DNA from: a virus
Taxonomy: Duplodnaviria > Caudoviricetes
Virus record (IMG/VR): IMGVR_UViG_3300033066_002431
Coordinates: 12,579-76,578 of that record
Length of the DNA: 64,000 nt
Direction: 5' to 3' (one strand)
A program made the translations under genes and the position numbers. This document shows positions 37,052-64,000 of this stretch, piece by piece; position 1 is the first letter of the stretch, and each line of letters begins with the position of its first letter. The notes beneath the pieces were generated by a model, which did not search any database, was not told the DNA's origin, and saw only the letters and a list, made by a program, of their open reading frames with translations.

Positions 37052-40000
37052 TCACCCGTCGGTGAGGCGGTTGTAGAGCGCGCGGCCAAGGTCGGTCTCG
37101 AAGGCGGCCGACTCGCCGACGCCGGCCACCTCGAAGGCGGCGCTCGCGTCGATCCCGTCCGTTGCTTCGGCGACGACGCGCTTCTTCTGCAAGAGGTCGT
37201 TCGCGTCGGCCTGGATGGTGCCGCCGTAGACGAAGATCAGGAAGTCCACCTCTTCCGTCTGGCCGATGCGGACGAAGCGGCCGCGGAACTGCCGGAGCAA
37301 TGTCGGATCGTTGTTCGGATCATCGTAGATGCAGACCGTCGAGAAGTGCCCCACCAAGACGTTGAGGCCCTCGGGCAGGGCGGCCGGGTTGCACACGAGG
37401 ATCCGCGCGCCGTTCTCCTTGGCGTCGATCACCCATTCACGGCGGTTCTTGGCCGACACCTTCTTCGCGTCGAGATGCGCGATGGTGACGCCGGTCGCCT
37501 TCAGGATGCGCGCGAGCCGCTGTCCGAGCGCCGTGCGCACCGTCGCGACCACCACGTTGCGACCGCGCTCCAGAGCGGCACGGACCTCGCGCACGAGAGC
37601 CTCTTCCTTGGGGAGGAGCACCTTCGGGTCCATGCCGGGCTCGACGTGCAGCACGTGCGACTCACCGGCCATGTCCGTGTCTTCGGGGTAGGCGATCGTC
37701 CAGTCTCCGCCTGCGGTGTTGCCGAGGTCCGCCGTCGCGTGGTCGTAGTACCGGGGGAGGTGTCCGAGCGCCCCGAAGAGCTTGCCCGCTCGCCCTGCCT
37801 TGAAGCGGTCTTTCCCGATCGCCTCGCAGATTTTCCGCTGCATGAGGTCGGCGGCCTTCTTCATGGGCTCGCTCGGCGCGCACGACACGAGGCGCTCGTG
37901 AACGGGCGGGAGCGCGATCTCAAGGTCCGCGAGCTGCACGACCACGGAGATCGGCAGCAAGAAGCGCATGACCGCGGTGGGGAGCACGCCAGGGGCCGCG
38001 CCAGTCGTGCGCTCGCGGGTCGTCACGCGGTCGCTGTGCGTCCCGAAGACGACGCGCTTCTTGTTCTCGTCGACTTGCTCGACAACCTGCACGAGGAAGC
38101 CGTAGCGCCGCTCGAACTCGCCAACGTCGCCGTGCTCGAACTCCTGACGGAAGCGGCTCGACAAGTGCCAGAGCAGCACGAAGAGCGTGCGCGCGTAGCC
38201 GTTCATCACCGATCCGGTGAGGGCGATTACGGGGATTTTGCGGCGCGATCGAAGGCTCAAGAGCCTTGATGCCGCGCGGCTTTGTGCGCTGTCGCCGTTC
38301 TGGAACTTATGGAATTCGTCGATGATCATGAAGTCGAACAGGTGGGGTGCTCGCTTCAGGATGTACTTCGCAAGGGACACGCGCCGTGGGTTTGGGACCG
38401 CCTGGTAGAGCAACTCTCCGCACGTCTCTTCCTCCCACGCAGCGACCGTGGCGAGCCGCTCGATCGCGAACTTCAGGGCGTCGTCCGAGCCGCGCTTCCT
38501 GCCATCCAAGAGAGGCTCGTCGCCGTCGCAGCCGAAGCCGCGGAGGTCGTACGGGAAGGGGTCGCCGTTCTTCCACTCGGCTTTCCACTTCCCATCTCGG
38601 CGGAGCTTGTTCGCGGTGAGGATCTCGCTCCCGTTGAACAGCCGGTGAGGCTTGTTCCAGGCGTCGTGCCCCTCGTAGCGGCGCATCTCGCCGAGCGTGG
38701 ACGCGATGAGGGGCGACGACGGCGGCAGCAAGAGCAGCGTCTTTGCGGCGACGTCACGCACGCCCGCATCGTCACCGCCCCCGTAGCCGGCGCTCCGGCT
38801 TTCGAGCGTCGAACGGAAGAGCCGCATCGCCTCGCGCACGATCAAGGCGTCATCGCCGAGCGCGTGCAGCACGTTCCAGTATGCGAGCCGGAGGGTGGTC
38901 CCGCGCTCGTCGTACTTCGTGGTCTTCTCCACAAGACGCCGGAGAGGCTTCACGATGCCCCGCACCACGCCTGCAAGGTCGCGCCAGTCGGCGTCCTCCC
39001 GTCGCCACGCGCGCCGGAGGATGCGACCGCCCACGCGCCGGCATGCGTCTCGAAGCTGCGCGTCGTCGAGCTTGCCGCCGAGCACCGTCAGGCGAGCCAA
39101 GATGCGCGCCGGCCCGTTCGCGGGGGTCGTGATCGTGGTGCCGCACGACAGCCGTTGCTCGGCGAGCTTCTCGCGGCTCTCCGCCTGGAGAGCACCGCAC
39201 GCCCCGCACCGTGCGACGCCCTCCCACGCATGGCCGAGCTTCGCGGGCTCCTTCGAGAGCACGGCGATCTCCATGCCCTCCGCGCGCATCTCGGCGAAGG
39301 CGTCGATGTCGTTCACGCTCTCCAGGAACGTCACGCGCGCGTCCGGGAGCACCTTCGCCACCTCGCTCTTCCACTCGGGCAAAAGCGACGTCGGACAGAG
39401 CACGAGGACCTTCCCGACGCCCCCGAGGTAGTAGTACGCGGCGAGCAAGCTCATCCGGGTCTTGCCGACACCGATCTGTCCGAGCAACACGGCCGCCCGG
39501 TCCGGTTCCTCGAGTAGCCGTAGAAGCGCGCGAACACCGTCCTCCTGTCCGCCGAGGAGCGGATCCGGCGACACGGGGAAGAGCAGCCGATCCTTGTCCT
39601 CCTCGCGCGTCGGGTCGTAGAGAAGCTCGCACCGCGCGCGAAGGGCATCGAGCATGCTGCCGCTGTAGCGCGCGAGGAGATCGCCCACGGACCACTGCGC
39701 GGGATCCTCGTGACCGGACGGCTCCACGCTGGACACAAGCCGGTGATACCGACCCCGCGAGAGGTCCAAGATCGACAGTTGAAGCTCGGGATGGTGTTGC
39801 CGCTCTTCCGCGACGCGCTCCCCCTTCGCTTCCTTCCACCGGAGGTGCCGGAACGTGCGCCGGTGAACGCCCTTCAGGAGAAGCTCCGGTCCGCGCTGGC
39901 CCGCGTCGGGGGTGAGGCGCGCCCCAGAGAGGATGCCCGCACCGGCGGCCATGGCGATGTGCGCCGGCCGTGGTGGGCACGCCAGACGCAGCCGCGGGGC

Positions 40001-40897
40001 CATGATCTCCGTGTACGGGTCTTCGGGCTCCACGTTCGCGACGGCTTGCCGCTGCCCGGCGCGATCGGTGATCGTCCACGGCTGGTAGGCGGCGAGGATG
40101 GAGAGCAAGTCGACCTCACCCATCTTCCACGAAGGGGCCGCGGTCTCCGTCACCTTCACGGTGAGGTGTGCCCGGTGAAGGCCCTTCACGGGAAGCTCCG
40201 GGATGCTGGCGGCGTCCGCGCTCCACGCGCGCACCTGAGCAGCGATCGACGGCTCCGGCGTCGCCAAGGTCATCCGGCGCCGGCCGACGAGCACGACCTG
40301 CTTGAAGGCCTCGAAGTGGGGCGCGGGGACACGCCAGCACGCCACGTCCTCGAAGTGCCGTGCGATGGTGTCCGCGCTGTCGGCGAGCGTGTAGAACGGC
40401 ACGAAGTGAAGGATCGCGCCCCCCACCGTCACGAGCGGGGCGAAGCGGCGAAGCCAGCGCTCTTCGAGCCGGCGGTACTGGCGATCGAAGTCGTACGGGC
40501 AGTTGTGCCAGAGGATGTGGACGCCCTCGTTCGGGCTGTTGGCCAAGAGGAACGAGTCGCCGTGCGCGATCTCGTGCGAGAAGCCCGAGAACTGCCCGCT
40601 GTAGAGCGCGTTCCGAAGGCTGTGCCCGCGGGTCTCTTCCATCTCGCAGGCGAACACCTTCGCGTGCTGGCCCCATTGGGCTTCGCGACTGTCCTTCGGG
40701 CCGGAGAGCATGCCGGCCATCTGGATCCACTCGCGAGCGAGACCGACGACGGCATCGCCGGTGCCCGCGCACGGGTCCGCTACGAAGAGCTTCTCGCCGG
40801 CCTTCATGCTCACGCGCACGGTGGACGCGAGCGCGCGGTAAAGCTCGGGTGGTGCGGGGTAGAAGCCCCCCAGTGCAGTGCTCTCCGGTCTCGCCAT
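37052..40897 (-). CDS. methyltransferase (DUF6094-like)-SF2/SNF2 helicase fusion
   Basis: MARPES..GGFYP, DPCAGTG, WHNCPY; helicase motifs GQIGVGKT, DEFH, ALTGS, EGLNV, QFRGRFVRIGQ. Confidence 0.85.
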   Translation of the reverse strand: MARPESTALGGFYPAPPELYRALASTVRVSMKAGEKLFVADPCAGTGDAVVGLAREWIQMAGMLSGPKDSREAQWGQHAKVFACEMEETRGHSLRNALYSGQFSGFSHEIAHGDSFLLANSPNEGVHILWHNCPYDFDRQYRRLEERWLRRFAPLVTVGGAILHFVPFYTLADSADTIARHFEDVACWRVPAPHFEAFKQVVLVGRRRMTLATPEPSIAAQVRAWSADAASIPELPVKGLHRAHLTVKVTETAAPSWKMGEVDLLSILAAYQPWTITDRAGQRQAVANVEPEDPYTEIMAPRLRLACPPRPAHIAMAAGAGILSGARLTPDAGQRGPELLLKGVHRRTFRHLRWKEAKGERVAEERQHHPELQLSILDLSRGRYHRLVSSVEPSGHEDPAQWSVGDLLARYSGSMLDALRARCELLYDPTREEDKDRLLFPVSPDPLLGGQEDGVRALLRLLEEPDRAAVLLGQIGVGKTRMSLLAAYYYLGGVGKVLVLCPTSLLPEWKSEVAKVLPDARVTFLESVNDIDAFAEMRAEGMEIAVLSKEPAKLGHAWEGVARCGACGALQAESREKLAEQRLSCGTTITTPANGPARILARLTVLGGKLDDAQLRDACRRVGGRILRRAWRREDADWRDLAGVVRGIVKPLRRLVEKTTKYDERGTTLRLAYWNVLHALGDDALIVREAMRLFRSTLESRSAGYGGGDDAGVRDVAAKTLLLLPPSSPLIASTLGEMRRYEGHDAWNKPHRLFNGSEILTANKLRRDGKWKAEWKNGDPFPYDLRGFGCDGDEPLLDGRKRGSDDALKFAIERLATVAAWEEETCGELLYQAVPNPRRVSLAKYILKRAPHLFDFMIIDEFHKFQNGDSAQSRAASRLLSLRSRRKIPVIALTGSVMNGYARTLFVLLWHLSSRFRQEFEHGDVGEFERRYGFLVQVVEQVDENKKRVVFGTHSDRVTTRERTTGAAPGVLPTAVMRFLLPISVVVQLADLEIALPPVHERLVSCAPSEPMKKAADLMQRKICEAIGKDRFKAGRAGKLFGALGHLPRYYDHATADLGNTAGGDWTIAYPEDTDMAGESHVLHVEPGMDPKVLLPKEEALVREVRAALERGRNVVVATVRTALGQRLARILKATGVTIAHLDAKKVSAKNRREWVIDAKENGARILVCNPAALPEGLNVLVGHFSTVCIYDDPNNDPTLLRQFRGRFVRIGQTEEVDFLIFVYGGTIQADANDLLQKKRVVAEATDGIDASAAFEVAGVGESAAFETDLGRALYNRLTDG

Positions 40898-54596: not shown

Positions 54597-55245
54597 AGGT
54601 CCACAACGGGCACTTCTTGGCGTTCTGCCGGTGCCCTTGCTCTCCGCACTTCCCACACCTCTTCAGCGCCTTTGGCATGGGCGATCGGCGCTTGTCGACC
54701 GGCACCCGGCGTCCTCGCCGGCACGAGCTGCATGCGCGTCGCGGGTCCTTCTTCGGGGCTGGACGCTTCCCGCAGCGATAGCAGCGGCCGGCGGCGATCC
54801 GCTCTTCGGCCCGCTGCTTCTGCTTGTCGGCCATCACCTTGCGGCAGCCCTTGCAGCGCGTCTTCGTGAAGCACGGAGCAACACCGCAGTCGCGGCACAT
54901 GCCATCCGCGGCACGCCGCTCAACGGTGGCGTTCGTGCCGTACGAGGGTGCGGTCGTCCGCCTCTCCTCGCAGCCAGCGCACAGCCGGTCTCGCACGGTC
55001 GCAGGAACGAGCCCGCACCTCATGCATAGGCCCGCGGCCTTCCGCGCCAGCATGCGGCGGCGTTCCTGGCGGCTGTGCTTCTTCGTGCAGACGGCACAGA
55101 CCGTCTTGCCGGGCGACACCGGCCGCCGGAAGCACGACTGGCACTTCCATCGCTTCTTGGCGAGCTTGCGCTTCCGCTGCATGTACCCGCGGCGCTGGAC
55201 GCGACTCGCAGCGGTCCGCGGGTAGCTCTTCCGGCGACGCTTCAT
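54568..55245 (-). CDS. tandem Cys4 zinc-finger protein with Arg-rich N-terminus and C-terminal knuckle
   Basis: Four CxxC-x(9-13)-CxxC units plus CGKCGEQGHRQNAKKC; ATG overlaps the TGA of the cysH-like gene. Confidence 0.75.
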   Translation of the reverse strand: MKRRRKSYPRTAASRVQRRGYMQRKRKLAKKRWKCQSCFRRPVSPGKTVCAVCTKKHSRQERRRMLARKAAGLCMRCGLVPATVRDRLCAGCEERRTTAPSYGTNATVERRAADGMCRDCGVAPCFTKTRCKGCRKVMADKQKQRAEERIAAGRCYRCGKRPAPKKDPRRACSSCRRGRRVPVDKRRSPMPKALKRCGKCGEQGHRQNAKKCPLWTSTRRTAPPA

Positions 55246-56066
55246 GCGTAGCAGGCTGCGTCCGGGGCGAGGCCTCGCAAGACTTCGAAGAGGCTCGGGT
55301 AGTACCGCTTGAGCCATGCCGCTGCCCCCTTCGCCGCGTGCGCACCGGGGATCCACCACGACTTGCGGATGAGCCACGGCTTCTGGCGGTGCTCGGGAAG
55401 CCAGCCGCAACAGCGGTACACGTGGAGCGGCTCCACGTCGTGCGCTTGCAGGTAGGCGAACACGTCGATCCCCGTCCAGCCGGCCAGCGGCGCACAGCGC
55501 ACCTGACCGCTCTTGAGCTGGTAGGTGGCCCCCTTCGCGGTGAGGAGCCTCTCGCGCCGGCCGCTCTCCTCGGCGCGGAGCCCCCAGAGCATGAGGTCGC
55601 GCCCCTCGTTCGCGCGCTCCATCACGCCGTAGAAGCATGCCTTCGAGAGGCCGGCACTCCGGCTGTGCATGTCCTCGCCCGCGGAGAGGGCACCACGGCG
55701 CTCCAGAAGCCACGCGAGCGGCGACGTCTCCGGCCGGAGGATCTCAAGGTCGACGGCGAAGCGGGACGCGAGGTCGCGCACGTAGGCTTCCTCGCCGGGG
55801 TAGTCGAGATCGTCCTTCTCCGAGATGGTGTGGACGTTCGCTTGGAGCTCGACGCGCACGAGATGGACGAGCGCCGTCGAGTCCTTCCCACCGGACCACG
55901 ACAGGACCGGCGTTGCCGCGTTGCCGAGCGCACGGCCGACGATCCGCTTCGCCGTGTCGACGGCTCGACGGTGCGAGAGGGACCGCGCGTGCATGGCAAA
56001 GGTGATGCGCCAGCGGTCCCACACGCGGACGTCTTCGGGGGAGAGAACGGGCTCGACGTGTTCCAT
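55242..56066 (-). CDS. cysH: CysH-like PAPS-reductase-family protein (type IV-B-associated style)
   Basis: VLSWSGGKDSTAL, LWGLRAEESGRR, CAPLAGWTGIDVFAYL. Confidence 0.8.
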   Translation of the reverse strand: MEHVEPVLSPEDVRVWDRWRITFAMHARSLSHRRAVDTAKRIVGRALGNAATPVLSWSGGKDSTALVHLVRVELQANVHTISEKDDLDYPGEEAYVRDLASRFAVDLEILRPETSPLAWLLERRGALSAGEDMHSRSAGLSKACFYGVMERANEGRDLMLWGLRAEESGRRERLLTAKGATYQLKSGQVRCAPLAGWTGIDVFAYLQAHDVEPLHVYRCCGWLPEHRQKPWLIRKSWWIPGAHAAKGAAAWLKRYYPSLFEVLRGLAPDAACYA

Positions 56067-57157
56067 CAGAACAGGGTGCGCCAACGCGCGAACCTGTCGA
56101 CGGGCTTCGTCTTCGACCTGGGGACGGGGATGCTGTTCTCGTAGTCGTTCACGAGGAGCTGCTTGCACTGCGCGTGATGCACGGGCTCCGTCGCCGGCTG
56201 GCCTGCAAAGCGCTTCTCGAAGCGGGCTCGCTTCTTCGCGTCGATCGGCATCGTCGCGAGAAGATGCTCTCGGTACGCGAGCCACGTCGCGAACCCGGTA
56301 GGGAGCTTCTGCACGTCGTAGAGGTGCGCGCCCTGCGCATGGTGGGCGGCGCAGTGGACGCCCTTCAACCGCTTCACCAGACGCGCGTACGTGTCGGGCT
56401 CCAGAGCGGCGAGGTCGGGGAGGCACCTGAAGCTCATCTCGTGAATCAGGTTGCTCACCCGGTTGTCGTTGTAGACGCCGCCGTTCATGGCCCAGCGGAG
56501 ATCGTAGATCCGGTTGTACGGCGCGCGCGTGTCGGCGACGAACCGCCAGACGTCGCCCATCCCCCAGTCATAGAGCGGGTACGCCTTGAAGCTCGTCGCG
56601 TTGCCAGTGCGCGAGGTCCACGGCACGCCATCGACGCCGGCGTTCTTCACCACCGCGCGGAAGCGGTTGATGCCTTCCTCCGCGCGCAGGCCCACCAAGA
56701 AGGTGGTGTCCGGCGTCTTCTCTTCGAGCCACTCGAAGAAGGGGTAGAAGCGGGCGGGGTAGTCGCCGTCGATGTAGTGGATCGAGCCTGGCTCCTTCTC
56801 GCGCATCCACGGCTCGCCCGGCCCCCACGCGTAGAGATGGTCTTCCGCGTAGCTCGTCGCGTTCGTCATGCGGATCGGCACCTGATACCAGGCGGGGATC
56901 ACGGCCGGGTGCGCCATCATCGTGCGCATGAGGGCGATGGTCCCCTCGTACTCCGCTTCCTGATCCAGGAAGAAGAGCGTCACCTTGCGGCCCCGTCGCC
57001 CGGCTTCGTCCACGGCAAGGTGGAAGAGCACTGTGCTGTCCTTGCCGCCCGAGACCGACACGTTCACGCGCTCGAATCGGTCGAACACCCATGCGACTCG
57101 GGCGCGGGCGGCGTCGAGCACGCTCTCCGGCAGGTACGTCTTGACGATCTGCCTCAC
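56066..57157 (-). CDS. ibrA: IbrA-like PAPS-reductase-family protein
   Basis: VSVSGGKDSTVL, FFLDQEAEYEGT, GLRAEEGINR, YPLYDWGMGDVW. Confidence 0.8.
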   Translation of the reverse strand: MRQIVKTYLPESVLDAARARVAWVFDRFERVNVSVSGGKDSTVLFHLAVDEAGRRGRKVTLFFLDQEAEYEGTIALMRTMMAHPAVIPAWYQVPIRMTNATSYAEDHLYAWGPGEPWMREKEPGSIHYIDGDYPARFYPFFEWLEEKTPDTTFLVGLRAEEGINRFRAVVKNAGVDGVPWTSRTGNATSFKAYPLYDWGMGDVWRFVADTRAPYNRIYDLRWAMNGGVYNDNRVSNLIHEMSFRCLPDLAALEPDTYARLVKRLKGVHCAAHHAQGAHLYDVQKLPTGFATWLAYREHLLATMPIDAKKRARFEKRFAGQPATEPVHHAQCKQLLVNDYENSIPVPRSKTKPVDRFARWRTLF

Positions 57158-60886: not shown

Positions 60887-60915
60887 TTGATAAGACAACT
60901 CGCGCGCTATGTCAA
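60887..60915 (-). promoter_or_regulatory. promoter TTGACA-N17-TATCAA
   Basis: The -35 box overlaps the TGA of csf3. Confidence 0.75.
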
Positions 60916-61646
60916 GCGACCGTGCCGAGCGCGACGCGAGGAACCGCGCACACGCAGACGTTCTTGTTGGCCCAGTACGGCGCGCGCGTGGCCTTCTCCC
61001 CGCAGATTGGATCGTTCAACTTCGGGCAGCCTTTGCCGAGGGGTAGCGAGCGCATGGGCTCGCCCTTCCACGCAAGCGAGCGCTCCTCCGGGTCCGGCAT
61101 GTACTCCACGCCGAGGATGGTCCCGAGGCCCGACGAGTAGCCACGTCCGATGGCGGTGGCGTCGCCGAGGAGATCCCGCACGAGAGCCGCGTCCCCTGCG
61201 AGGTGGAAGTCGAGCCACGGGGTGGTGAGCGCCTGCACGGGGATGTTCGTGCTCTTGAACGCTCCGCCCGCGATGGTGAGCCGCCCGCCGCTCATGGCTT
61301 CGAGACGTGCGCGCTTGCGTCGCCATCGGAGCGACTCGACGGCGATCGGGGGCGGCCACCCCCACGACGCGCACGCGATCGGCAGCCCCATGATCTCAAC
61401 GTCCGCGACGGGGATCGGGATCTCTGGGTTGAGGCCTCGGGGGCACTCGGCGAAGACGTCGTCGGAAAGGCGGCTCGTCTCGCGCTCCACGACGAGCCGC
61501 TGAAGCAGCCCGTCGATCTGGACGCCGTTGTCGCTCCACGCGACGGGCGAGGAGAACCACACGCGCACGGTGAAGCTCTTGCTCTTCGAGGCGCGCCATC
61601 GCTCCGCCCGCGCGAGCCACGCCGTGTTGTCGTCGAGCCAGCTCAC
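60912..61646 (-). CDS. csf3: Csf3 (Cas5-like) type IV subunit
   Basis: GTG at 61646; FTVRVWFSSPV...IDGLL, Gly-rich AIGRGYSSGLG, C-terminal RAPYW. Confidence 0.75.
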   Translation of the reverse strand: MSWLDDNTAWLARAERWRASKSKSFTVRVWFSSPVAWSDNGVQIDGLLQRLVVERETSRLSDDVFAECPRGLNPEIPIPVADVEIMGLPIACASWGWPPPIAVESLRWRRKRARLEAMSGGRLTIAGGAFKSTNIPVQALTTPWLDFHLAGDAALVRDLLGDATAIGRGYSSGLGTILGVEYMPDPEERSLAWKGEPMRSLPLGKGCPKLNDPICGEKATRAPYWANKNVCVCAVPRVALGTVA

Positions 61647-63112
61647 GCCGTCGCCTCGCGCGCCTTGCGGCCCTTCTTGGGCGCCGGCTCGGTGGTGCCG
61701 GCGAGCCACTCGAGGATCGGCTCCCGGTGCGTCGACAGGTAGTCGAGGTACTCCGCGCCGCTGGGGAGGGGCTCCGCCTTCTCGGCGGGCTTGTACCCGA
61801 GCGTGGAGACCTGGCCGTAGCCGCGGCTGGTCTGCGCGCCAAGCAGGCCCACGTCCGCGAAGTCTTCGAGCAAGTCGGCGAGGCAGCTCTGCGCGAGCGT
61901 GGAGACCGTCGACAGGCTCACCACGCTGAACGTGTGGAAGAGCCGTGCGCCGGGCTTGATGGCCTCCGTGTTCCAGATCATCTGCGCGCCGCCCTCGTCA
62001 GCCGAGAGGTCGCCGCCGGGAAGGTCCCGGTGCGCGTGACGCACGCCAAGCCGCAAGAGCGTCCAGTCGTCGGAGGGAAGGAGGCTCGCCGCGAAGTCCT
62101 CGTAGTCGAGCGGTCGGCCAAGCACGTCGGTGGGCTCCATCATCCGGTAGAGCTTCCACGCATTCTCTCGGCACAACAGCGTGCAGTCGTGGACGCGGAG
62201 CAGACCGCTCATGATCTGCTGTTCGATGCAGCCGCCGAGCAAGTCGATCGCGGGGATGGTGCTTCGCGCACGCATGCGGACGTCGAGCCGCGCGGTGGCT
62301 CCGTCGGCCCCCTTCTCGATGGTGCCGCCCGAGAACAGCTCTTGCGCGCGACGCTGCGAGAGGTCGGTCTCGGGCTTCACCTTCAACGCGCGGAGCATCC
62401 TGGCGAAGAAGAGGTCGCGCCACTGCCCCTTGATGGCGTTGCCCGTGTAGATCGGCACGAGCGCCTGCTCTCCGGTGAAGGGGTCGACCTGGGGTTGCCG
62501 GCGGAAGAGGCAGACGTTGCCTGCCTTCTCGTCGTGGCCGTGCGCGAGCGGAGAGACAACCTGGAACCACGCGCGGTGCTGCTTGGGGCTCTGCATGGCC
62601 TCGCCGGGGAGGACGCCCGTCCAGCGCGGGCCGTCGTGGTCGATGCTCTTCGGCAGGTAGGCGATGTCCTGTTCGCTCGGCGGCGTCTGCGCGAAGGTGA
62701 TGAAGAAGTCGCTGCCCTCGTTCACGACGATGCGCACGGCTTCGAGGCTCGTGTGCTGCGCGATGATGGCCCACGGCACGACGCGCTTGCCCTCGTGAAC
62801 GATGCCGGGAAGGTCGCCCGCGATCTCGTCGGGGATAAACGCCGCGACCGACCGAAAGTCGCGCGTCTCGCCATCGGCGATCTCGGCGCTGCCCGCGTTC
62901 AGCTCGATCTCGAAGCGCTTCGCGAGCGCCTGCACGAACGCCATGGTCGAGCGCGCGGCGATGGTGCCCGCGCGCAGGTAGTCGCTCATCTCGCTGGGGA
63001 GGTTGCGGTGACGAGCGGCACCGATCCGCCGCTTGTCGACGCGGCGGAACATGGCGCGGAGCAGATACGCGAAGCGCACGCGCGCCTCGTAGACTTCGGT
63101 CTTGGTGGCCAT
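61643..63112 (-). CDS. csf2: Csf2 (Cas7-like) with a fused N-terminal Cas11-like helical domain
   Basis: VVSPLAHG...LFRR...VPIYTGNAIKGQWRD...LFSGG...IDLLGG...GLLRV...CREN and GAQTSRGYG; about 165-aa helical N-terminus. Confidence 0.8.
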   Translation of the reverse strand: MATKTEVYEARVRFAYLLRAMFRRVDKRRIGAARHRNLPSEMSDYLRAGTIAARSTMAFVQALAKRFEIELNAGSAEIADGETRDFRSVAAFIPDEIAGDLPGIVHEGKRVVPWAIIAQHTSLEAVRIVVNEGSDFFITFAQTPPSEQDIAYLPKSIDHDGPRWTGVLPGEAMQSPKQHRAWFQVVSPLAHGHDEKAGNVCLFRRQPQVDPFTGEQALVPIYTGNAIKGQWRDLFFARMLRALKVKPETDLSQRRAQELFSGGTIEKGADGATARLDVRMRARSTIPAIDLLGGCIEQQIMSGLLRVHDCTLLCRENAWKLYRMMEPTDVLGRPLDYEDFAASLLPSDDWTLLRLGVRHAHRDLPGGDLSADEGGAQMIWNTEAIKPGARLFHTFSVVSLSTVSTLAQSCLADLLEDFADVGLLGAQTSRGYGQVSTLGYKPAEKAEPLPSGAEYLDYLSTHREPILEWLAGTTEPAPKKGRKAREATA

Positions 63113-64000
63113 TCAGGATCTCCGGGTGAGAGGGGGCATGCGAAGGAGGGGAACGAAGAAGGCCCACCATCGGGCCGCGACGTGCGGACGAAGGGGCGCG
63201 ACGCGGGCGGACCACCTGTCGGGCGCAGCGACGGCGAGAGGCGCACCACGGGGCGCCCGCAGGGTCGTGATGGCCTCGCGCGCGTCGTCGGAGCCAACCC
63301 CGCCGGCGCGAAGGTCGGCAAGCAGCGGCTCGCAGAGAACGCGCAACGTGGTCCAGAGCGCGACGTCGACCACGATGTTCGTGTCGTCCACGGCGAGGTC
63401 GTACCGGCGCGCGTCGTACGAGACTTTCGCAAAGGGCAGGGTGTGCTTCGTCTGGAGCTTCCACAGCGGGTCCGCCGGGTGATGCACGCCGCCCGCGCCG
63501 TCCGGACAGAACGTCCGGTGACAGTTGGCCTCCCCGCCGTGGTCGATGCCGTAGAGGGGGCACCACGCGACGAAGGGCGGGGCCGGCGGGTTGAGGAGCG
63601 CCGTCAGGGCGTCAGGCCGGACGAAGGGCCACTCGCGGGCCGCCGGCCAGTCTGCGGGCTTGGGGATCGGTCGCAGGGCGACGGGGTAGACGCCGCCAGG
63701 ACCGACCGCATCCGAACAGCGCGCGAAGCACAGGCCGGTCTTCACGTAGAGCGAGCGGAACGACCACACGCAGCCGGCGCACAGCCGCTCGGTGCCGTGC
63801 GGCCAGAGGATCGCCGCGTTGCGGATCGTAGTGAACTTGTCGCTGATCGCCTGATCGACGCGGTAGCGGGAGTCGAGCGCCCCGCAGTGCGCGCAGGCGT
63901 CGCCAGTGCCGCCGAGGGGCAGGATGGGGGTGCCGTCGCTCTCCACGGGGGAAGGGCGGCCGGCGGCTTCCCACACGAACGAGGTGGCGCGGGTAGTCAC
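63113..64000 (-). CDS. csf1: Csf1 (Cas8-like) type IV large subunit (start at the window edge)
   Basis: CAHCG...ISDKFT...LCAGC zinc finger; LLNPPAPPF and KH motifs. Confidence 0.75.
   Translation of the reverse strand: MTTRATSFVWEAAGRPSPVESDGTPILPLGGTGDACAHCGALDSRYRVDQAISDKFTTIRNAAILWPHGTERLCAGCVWSFRSLYVKTGLCFARCSDAVGPGGVYPVALRPIPKPADWPAAREWPFVRPDALTALLNPPAPPFVAWCPLYGIDHGGEANCHRTFCPDGAGGVHHPADPLWKLQTKHTLPFAKVSYDARRYDLAVDDTNIVVDVALWTTLRVLCEPLLADLRAGGVGSDDAREAITTLRAPRGAPLAVAAPDRWSARVAPLRPHVAARWWAFFVPLLRMPPLTRRS

Follow-up and report, generated by a model that had tools for sequence, protein, structure and literature searches.

The DNA analysed here, hereafter called the window, is the final 64 kb (64,000 nucleotides) of the 76.6-kb IMG/VR provirus record IMGVR_UViG_3300033066_002431 (Duplodnaviria; Caudoviricetes), the end of which coincides with window position 64000. 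Close to this end, on the minus strand, lies a group of type IV CRISPR effector genes comprising csf1, an enlarged csf2 and csf3. The product of the enlarged gene consists of the Cas7 backbone subunit, Csf2, preceded by an additional N-terminal domain that is probably the small subunit Cas11. An initial annotation, made from the DNA letters, had described such a fusion in a 489-amino-acid (aa) Csf2 encoded at 61643–63112; this open reading frame (ORF) is present, contains the peptides quoted in that annotation and runs on the minus strand, which had been left unstated. The window DNA has a G+C content of ~69 %, at which open frames alone say little and protein-level evidence is required.

Gene order and domain architecture of the locus

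The first gene of the group, csf1, encodes the Cas8-like large subunit (295 aa; 63113–64000, minus strand; PADLOC typeIV_Cas8/Csf1_0_IV, E 1.6e-10). Its ORF is essentially complete despite the end of the record at 64000, since it can be aligned over its whole length with homologues of 275–304 aa that lie upstream of other fused genes, and it carries a four-cysteine zinc motif (C36, C39, C74 and C77) that is invariant among the homologues aligned. The csf1 stop codon TGA (63115–63113) directly abuts the ATG at 63112, with which the fused cas11-csf2 gene opens, and a GGAG Shine–Dalgarno (SD) motif can be read in the sequence 7 nucleotides 5′ of this ATG (63120–63123, minus strand). Translation of the fused gene starts at this ATG, which combines a good SD motif with translational coupling to the csf1 stop. 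The gene then forms a single ORF of 489 aa (61643–63112, minus strand, stop codon included). The third gene, csf3, encodes Cas5 (60912–61646, minus strand; PADLOC Csf3_0_IV, E 1.4e-28; TIGR03116, E 6e-6, below the cut-off). As read from the sequence, its probable start codon is a GTG sharing bases with the csf2 stop (GTGA) and preceded by GAGG 7 nucleotides upstream, which gives a probable product of 244 aa; its homologues in related loci measure 243–249 aa.

The C-terminal two-thirds of the fused protein is a Csf2/Cas7 RAMP domain (residues 178–473; 61694–62581, minus strand) recognized by PADLOC, by alignment with the Csf2 of a type IV-B complex and by Foldseek. The PADLOC typeIV_Cas7 model matches residues 182–473 (E 4.6e-44), while the Pfam RAMPs model remains below its gathering score (E 0.0013). 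Residues 199–463 align with residues 43–289 of the Csf2 (300 aa) in the type IV-B complex 7JHY (E 1.3e-6). An AlphaFold2 model of the full-length protein has a predicted local distance difference test score (pLDDT) of 79.8; used in a Foldseek search, it retrieves Cas7 chains only, those of type IV-A and type IV-B complexes first, among them the type IV-A Csf complex chain 7xg0_E (E 6.8e-9). In the register of 7JHY, a canonical Csf2 would start at about residue 157, so that ~155 residues of the protein are extra, and subtraction of these from 489 leaves an ordinary Csf2 length. At the other end of the chain, residues 474–489 (61646–61693, minus strand) form a Lys/Arg-rich, disordered tail; the tails of homologues vary in both length and sequence.

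The N-terminal domain and its similarity to type IV Cas11

The extra region folds, in the prediction, into a separate domain encompassing residues 1–152 (62657–63112, minus strand). A model of the domain alone, computed with AlphaFold2 from an alignment of 15 sequences from related loci, reaches a pLDDT of 92.8. It contains seven helices (residues 4–22, 27–36, 38–52, 56–66, 114–119, 123–142 and 147–152) that make up a Cas11-like bundle, into which a β-sheet is inserted at residues ~70–113 (62774–62905, minus strand). DSSP assigns five short strands to this insert (74–77, 83–86, 90–94, 104–106 and 109–113), the length of which varies among homologues, as seen from indels in two alignments. The initial annotation had described about 165 helical residues; the presence of an additional N-terminal domain is borne out, but the domain is not all-helical, given the strands between residues 74 and 113, and it ends near residue 152 rather than at 165. 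In the alignment of the 33 homologue clusters described below, L18, R19, R34, E41, R66, F67, W114 and R127 are invariant in the N-terminal region; W114 stands at the end of the β insert, within which P94 is nearly invariant. By composition, residues 1–69 hold 15 Lys/Arg as against 6 Asp/Glu, the invariant R19, R34 and R66 among them, and the domain as a whole is near neutral.

Results of an exhaustive structural alignment of the domain model against 48,161 chains of the PDB, carried out with VIA-align, place chain 7jhy_h of the type IV-B complex, named ‘Csf4 (Cas11)’, at the top of the list (Z 8.3; root mean square deviation of 3.5 Å; 110 of 143 residues aligned, within model range 3–148). The runner-up has a Z of 4.0, and other small-subunit-like chains appear further down the list. 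Sequence identity calculated from the structural alignment is ~13 %, and ~36 residues within the aligned range have no partner in 7JHY Cas11, in which the β-sheet is without counterpart.

A second line of evidence comes from sequence profiles of stand-alone cas11 genes. The ORF immediately upstream of csf2 was taken from 22 of 32 viral loci with a short csf2, and the presumed cas11 products form three sequence families, A, B and C. A profile comparison with Cas11, which the initial annotation had named as a check, was run with hhalign and connects the domain with family A at a probability of 83–86 % and E ~5e-6 to 1e-5. The first run gave 86 % and E 4.9e-6 over residues 11–73, the second 82.9 % and E 9.2e-6; the observed score of 40 compares with a maximum of 24 in 60 column shuffles and with 10 for a reversed template. 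When the 6,494 six-frame ORFs of the loci collected were searched with a hidden Markov model (HMM) of the domain, the ranking was led by 17 fused genes, followed by six family A cas11 ORFs located directly upstream of csf2 (best in locus L042, E 2.3e-5). Family A in turn matches 7JHY Cas11 at E 0.0068. Among themselves, the stand-alone viral type IV-B families A, B and C (loci L019–L046) are mutually unrecognizable, they track the Csf2 phylogeny, and only family A detectably resembles 7JHY Cas11.

Gene order provides a third line. Canonical viral loci read csf1 (215–300 aa), cas11 (113–180 aa), csf2 (280–335 aa) and csf3, whereas fused loci read csf1, a gene of ~490 aa and csf3, with no small cas11 gene between them. 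The coding region of the domain thus occupies the cas11 slot, with csf1 on one side and the Cas7-coding region on the other, which agrees with the original proposal that the domain stands in place of a separate cas11 gene. Because these three independent lines, structure, sequence profiles and gene order, agree, residues 1–152 can be identified as a type IV Cas11 domain fused ahead of Csf2/Cas7 in one polypeptide, with a probability of about 80 %. The same top structural match, family A similarity and synteny uphold the central claim of the initial annotation, a Cas11-like domain at the N terminus of Csf2.

Several points weigh against this identification. For a domain made largely of helices, a Z of 8.3 is only moderate, and helical bundles can obtain such scores through a common arrangement. 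Foldseek finds no match for the domain model in the PDB at E ≤ 0.001, its best rows being type I-A Cascade chains of 131–133 aa at E ~0.6. Structure alone is therefore not conclusive, as Foldseek missed the Cas11 match and the Z is moderate. No model of Pfam, NCBIfam, PADLOC or PHROGs matches the N-terminal domain. The confident hhalign similarity is limited to about residues 6–74, the C-terminal helices aligning at low confidence, and comparison of the domain profile with cas11 families B and C reveals no similarity. As for the architecture, docking of a tethered Cas11 on the Cas7 interface is an inference, and a product in one piece is predicted from the gene sequence. An ESM Atlas shape search with the domain returned no significant match (template modelling score, TM, < 0.4), and PDB sequence searches with the domain or its profile returned chance-level matches only.

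The silence of the family libraries and the lack of significant matches in Foldseek and the ESM Atlas would also fit a domain unrelated to Cas11, that is, a helical/β accessory domain such as an RNA- or partner-binding module in a lineage that has lost cas11. The β-sheet at residues 74–113, which has no counterpart in known Cas11, points the same way, and type IV-A systems are functional without Cas11 (PMC7937560). However, the best of 48,161 chains is a type IV-B Cas11 standing 4 Z units clear of the rest, the sequence profiles independently select stand-alone cas11 genes and nothing else, and both the length arithmetic and the gene position are those expected of cas11. An unrelated domain is thus very unlikely, and we retain the identification as Cas11.

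Conservation of the fusion and the case for a single product

A word-indexed search yields 33 homologue clusters (90 % identity level) that share 35–87 % identity with the query. In 32 of them the protein measures 483–525 aa and covers the query from residue 1; the exception has 401 aa and covers 76 % of the query. Among 1.84 billion representative proteins, a profile of this N-terminal domain picks out 47 clusters (50 % identity level) at E ≤ 0.001; almost all of these proteins measure 450–580 aa and carry the domain at the N terminus. Eight matches shorter than 330 aa were considered as candidates for a stand-alone domain bearing the β insert and were rejected, as they look like pieces from contig ends or gene calls broken by frameshifts and not like free genes. 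The same architecture is found on contigs from differing samples and sources (IMG/VR, JGI, Logan and NCBI metagenome-assembled genomes, MAGs). GenBank phages contain no fused homologue and only one weak, Cas7-only match (Skermania phage SPI1), and species-representative genomes contain two partial matches only, both in Myxococcota MAGs.

This distribution bears on whether the long ORF could be an assembly or sequencing artefact, or an over-extended start that merges two genes. At ~69 % G+C spurious long ORFs are common; yet dozens of independent contigs, drawn from different samples, share the N-terminal region at the protein level and in frame with Cas7, and the start codon has its own SD motif and its coupling to the csf1 stop. 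The sequencing artefact that the initial annotation had named as a refuting alternative is excluded by this conservation across independent samples, and the likelihood of any such merging is negligible.

The Cas11-like and Cas7 domains are connected by a linker (residues 153–177; 62582–62656, minus strand) modelled with a pLDDT of 63–73. In the 7JHY register, in which residue 199 corresponds to chain residue 43, the linker is roughly equivalent to the N-terminal tail of canonical Csf2. P169 and P176 are invariant in it, and F153 and W164 nearly so. Such conserved residues suggest that the linker is packed and is not a site of processing.

Another possibility is that the fused ORF gives rise to separate functional products, either by internal initiation, for example at the ATG at 62596, or by cleavage of the linker, which would restore a two-subunit stoichiometry. 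Type I cas8 genes also yield Cas11 by internal translation. An in-frame ATG is indeed located at the domain boundary (62594–62596, minus strand; M173, ‘MQSPK’), the confidence of the linker model is low, and the ratio observed in 7JHY is 6 Csf2 to 5 Cas11, not exactly 1:1 (PMC7937560). Opposed to this, the sole SD-like motif of the internal ATG is a GAGG only 2 nucleotides upstream, and M173 is replaced by Leu or Ile in homologues of 35–44 % identity in which the fusion is kept. With no usable SD motif and no conservation of M173, initiation at 62596 was rejected as unsupported, and we found nothing in the sequences to suggest a second product from it. Of the earlier proposal of a free Cas7 translated from this codon, the existence of the ATG and the poor quality of its SD motif stand, but the free Cas7 does not. 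Cleavage is disfavoured by the invariant P169 and P176 and the nearly invariant W164, and separate products in general by the full length of nearly all 47 clusters, the short members of which look like fragments or frameshifted contig ends. We consider separate products unlikely, and a single Cas11–Csf2 chain remains the preferred reading.

A tree calculated from Cas7 domains (11 from fused and 22 from canonical viral proteins) places the fused proteins on one side of a long branch (support 100/100), as a single clade. Csf2 clades also track the cas11 families. The tree is compatible with a single fusion event, which is the most likely origin of the fused gene. An overlap of a few bases between cas11 and csf2 is common in canonical loci, and a small indel at the cas11/csf2 junction, removing the stop and start, could have created the fusion in a type IV-B-like operon. 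The fusion has since been retained by a clade whose effectors are found mainly on tailed-phage-like contigs.

Loci with the fused gene differ in their csf1. On one 198-kb contig represented by L004 and L016 (8506–12318), no csf1-like ORF occurs in the 10 kb to either side of the fused gene, and a divergent PAPS-reductase gene lies upstream of it; this locus may represent a more reduced, two-gene effector made of cas11-csf2 and csf3. In L049 (1828–6257), csf1 lies ~1.9 kb upstream of the fused gene, with a 5′–3′ exonuclease gene and two small ORFs between them.

Genomic setting

Downstream of the effector genes, at a distance of 4.5–6 kb and on the same strand, the window contains two genes with the Pfam domain PF01507. 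The longer one encodes a PAPS-reductase protein with a DUF3440 domain (363 aa; 56066–57157, minus strand; PF01507, E 2.4e-13; PF11922, E 2.7e-8) and the shorter one a second PAPS-reductase-family protein (~275 aa; 55242–56069, minus strand; PF01507, E 2.5e-14), the size of which fits the cysH-like partner of type IV-B loci. The association of type IV-B effectors with cysH-like genes is thereby present. Four ORFs without assignment also lie downstream of csf3 on the same strand. The pair recurs downstream of the fused effector: besides the window (55242–57157, minus strand), it is found in L003 (17394–19303), L050 (11801–14583), L051 (12066–14633) and L052 (8672–10582), with products of ~365–380 aa carrying DUF3440, an IbrA-like architecture, and of ~255–278 aa. 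A conserved gene of ~300 aa without family match is situated just upstream of the longer PAPS-reductase gene.

A search of the window for a CRISPR-like repeat array found none, and no cas6 or helicase profile of Pfam, NCBIfam or PADLOC matches the neighbouring ORFs. The gene content is that of type IV-B, with csf1, cas11, csf2 and csf3 and with no Cas6, DinG/RecD, adaptation genes or array, cas11 being present as a domain and the record stopping at csf1. Elsewhere in the window, phage genes encode a Mu-type portal, a prohead protease and a baseplate-J protein. The locus is a IV-B-like module, array-less and associated with cysH, in the genome of a tailed phage. The window also encodes, at 37052–40897 on the minus strand, a 1,281-aa protein that joins a DUF6094-type methyltransferase region to an SNF2/ResIII helicase core.

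Proposed assembly and comparison with known systems

In the type IV-B complex 7JHY, in which only Csf2 and Cas11 were modelled, the backbone is built of six Csf2 subunits, and every one of the five Cas11 subunits rests on a Csf2–Csf2 interface (PMC7937560). In a type IV-C complex, the guide is lined by Cas7–Cas11 pairs (PMC13676074). By analogy, protomers of the fused protein would polymerize on RNA like ordinary Cas7 backbones, each bringing its own Cas11 domain, which would dock on the Cas7–Cas7 interface and build up the ‘belly’ filament. The supply of Cas11 would be tied 1:1 to that of Cas7, and the assembly of the two would become interdependent. The 1:1 stoichiometry and changed filament geometry put forward in the initial annotation would be logical consequences of the fusion. 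Csf3 (Cas5) and Csf1 would cap the complex, and the PAPS-reductase-family enzymes encoded downstream would be its likely effector partners, as in type IV-B.

More tentatively, and with distinctly less than even likelihood, the fused proteins could define a phage-borne type IV lineage of their own, of subtype or variant rank, that has the two-domain protomer as its repeating unit and the β insert as a new interface, for instance with the PAPS-reductase-family enzymes or target nucleic acid. Such a lineage, if it exists, would be a natural intermediate between multi-subunit and fused class 1 effectors, independent of type III-E and type III-Dv.

Among class 1 CRISPR subtypes, type IV-B is the least understood, with a complex known to bind heterogeneous RNA and a biological role that has yet to be settled (PMC7937560, PMC8175902). 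In this lineage, the conserved fusion indicates that Cas11 and Cas7 are obligate partners, and a three-gene system of csf1, cas11-csf2 and csf3 would be simpler for reconstitution and cryo-electron microscopy. The occurrence on tailed-phage-like contigs, together with two adjacent PP-loop enzymes, suggests that the module serves the phage in a non-adaptive role.

In the literature searched, cas11 is a separate gene in type IV-B and type IV-C, Csf1 and Csf3 are fused in type IV-E, and Cas7/Cas11 fusions occur only in type III-E and type III-Dv. This literature contains no description of a Cas11–Csf2 fusion in type IV. The closest relative of the N-terminal domain is the 7JHY Cas11 (Csf4 of Mycobacterium sp. 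JS623; PMC7937560), which is its best structural neighbour, is linked to it through family A and has the same gene slot between csf1 and the Cas7 region. However, 7JHY Cas11 is a free, all-helical protein with a sequence of 162 aa, whereas the domain described here is covalently joined to Cas7 and contains a β insertion of ~40 residues. The Cas7 part likewise resembles type IV Csf2 (7JHY Csf2; chains of the type IV-A Csf complexes 7XG0 and 8RC3), with profiles and structures matching residues 178–473, csf1 before it and csf3 after it. Canonical Csf2 differs in its length of 280–335 aa and in having no N-terminal domain, and a long branch sets the clade of the fused proteins apart.

Two other cases of subunit fusion in class 1 systems offer a comparison. 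Type III-E Cas7-11 (gRAMP) and type III-Dv effectors are also natural covalent fusions of Cas11-like and Cas7-like parts, but they combine several Cas7 units, and sometimes Cas5, in one or a few large chains that do not polymerize. The protein of the window has a single Cas11–Cas7 unit, which presumably repeats, and belongs to a type IV module with no array. The Csf1–Csf3 fusion of type IV-E (PMC7038947) is similar in that neighbouring type IV subunits are joined, a fusion rationalized by their proximity in the complex; its partners are different, namely the large subunit and Cas5, and its subtype is associated with DinG and with an array. The Cas11–Csf2 protein would represent a further class 1 subunit fusion, independent of those of type III-E and type III-Dv, that bears on the evolution of single-chain effectors.

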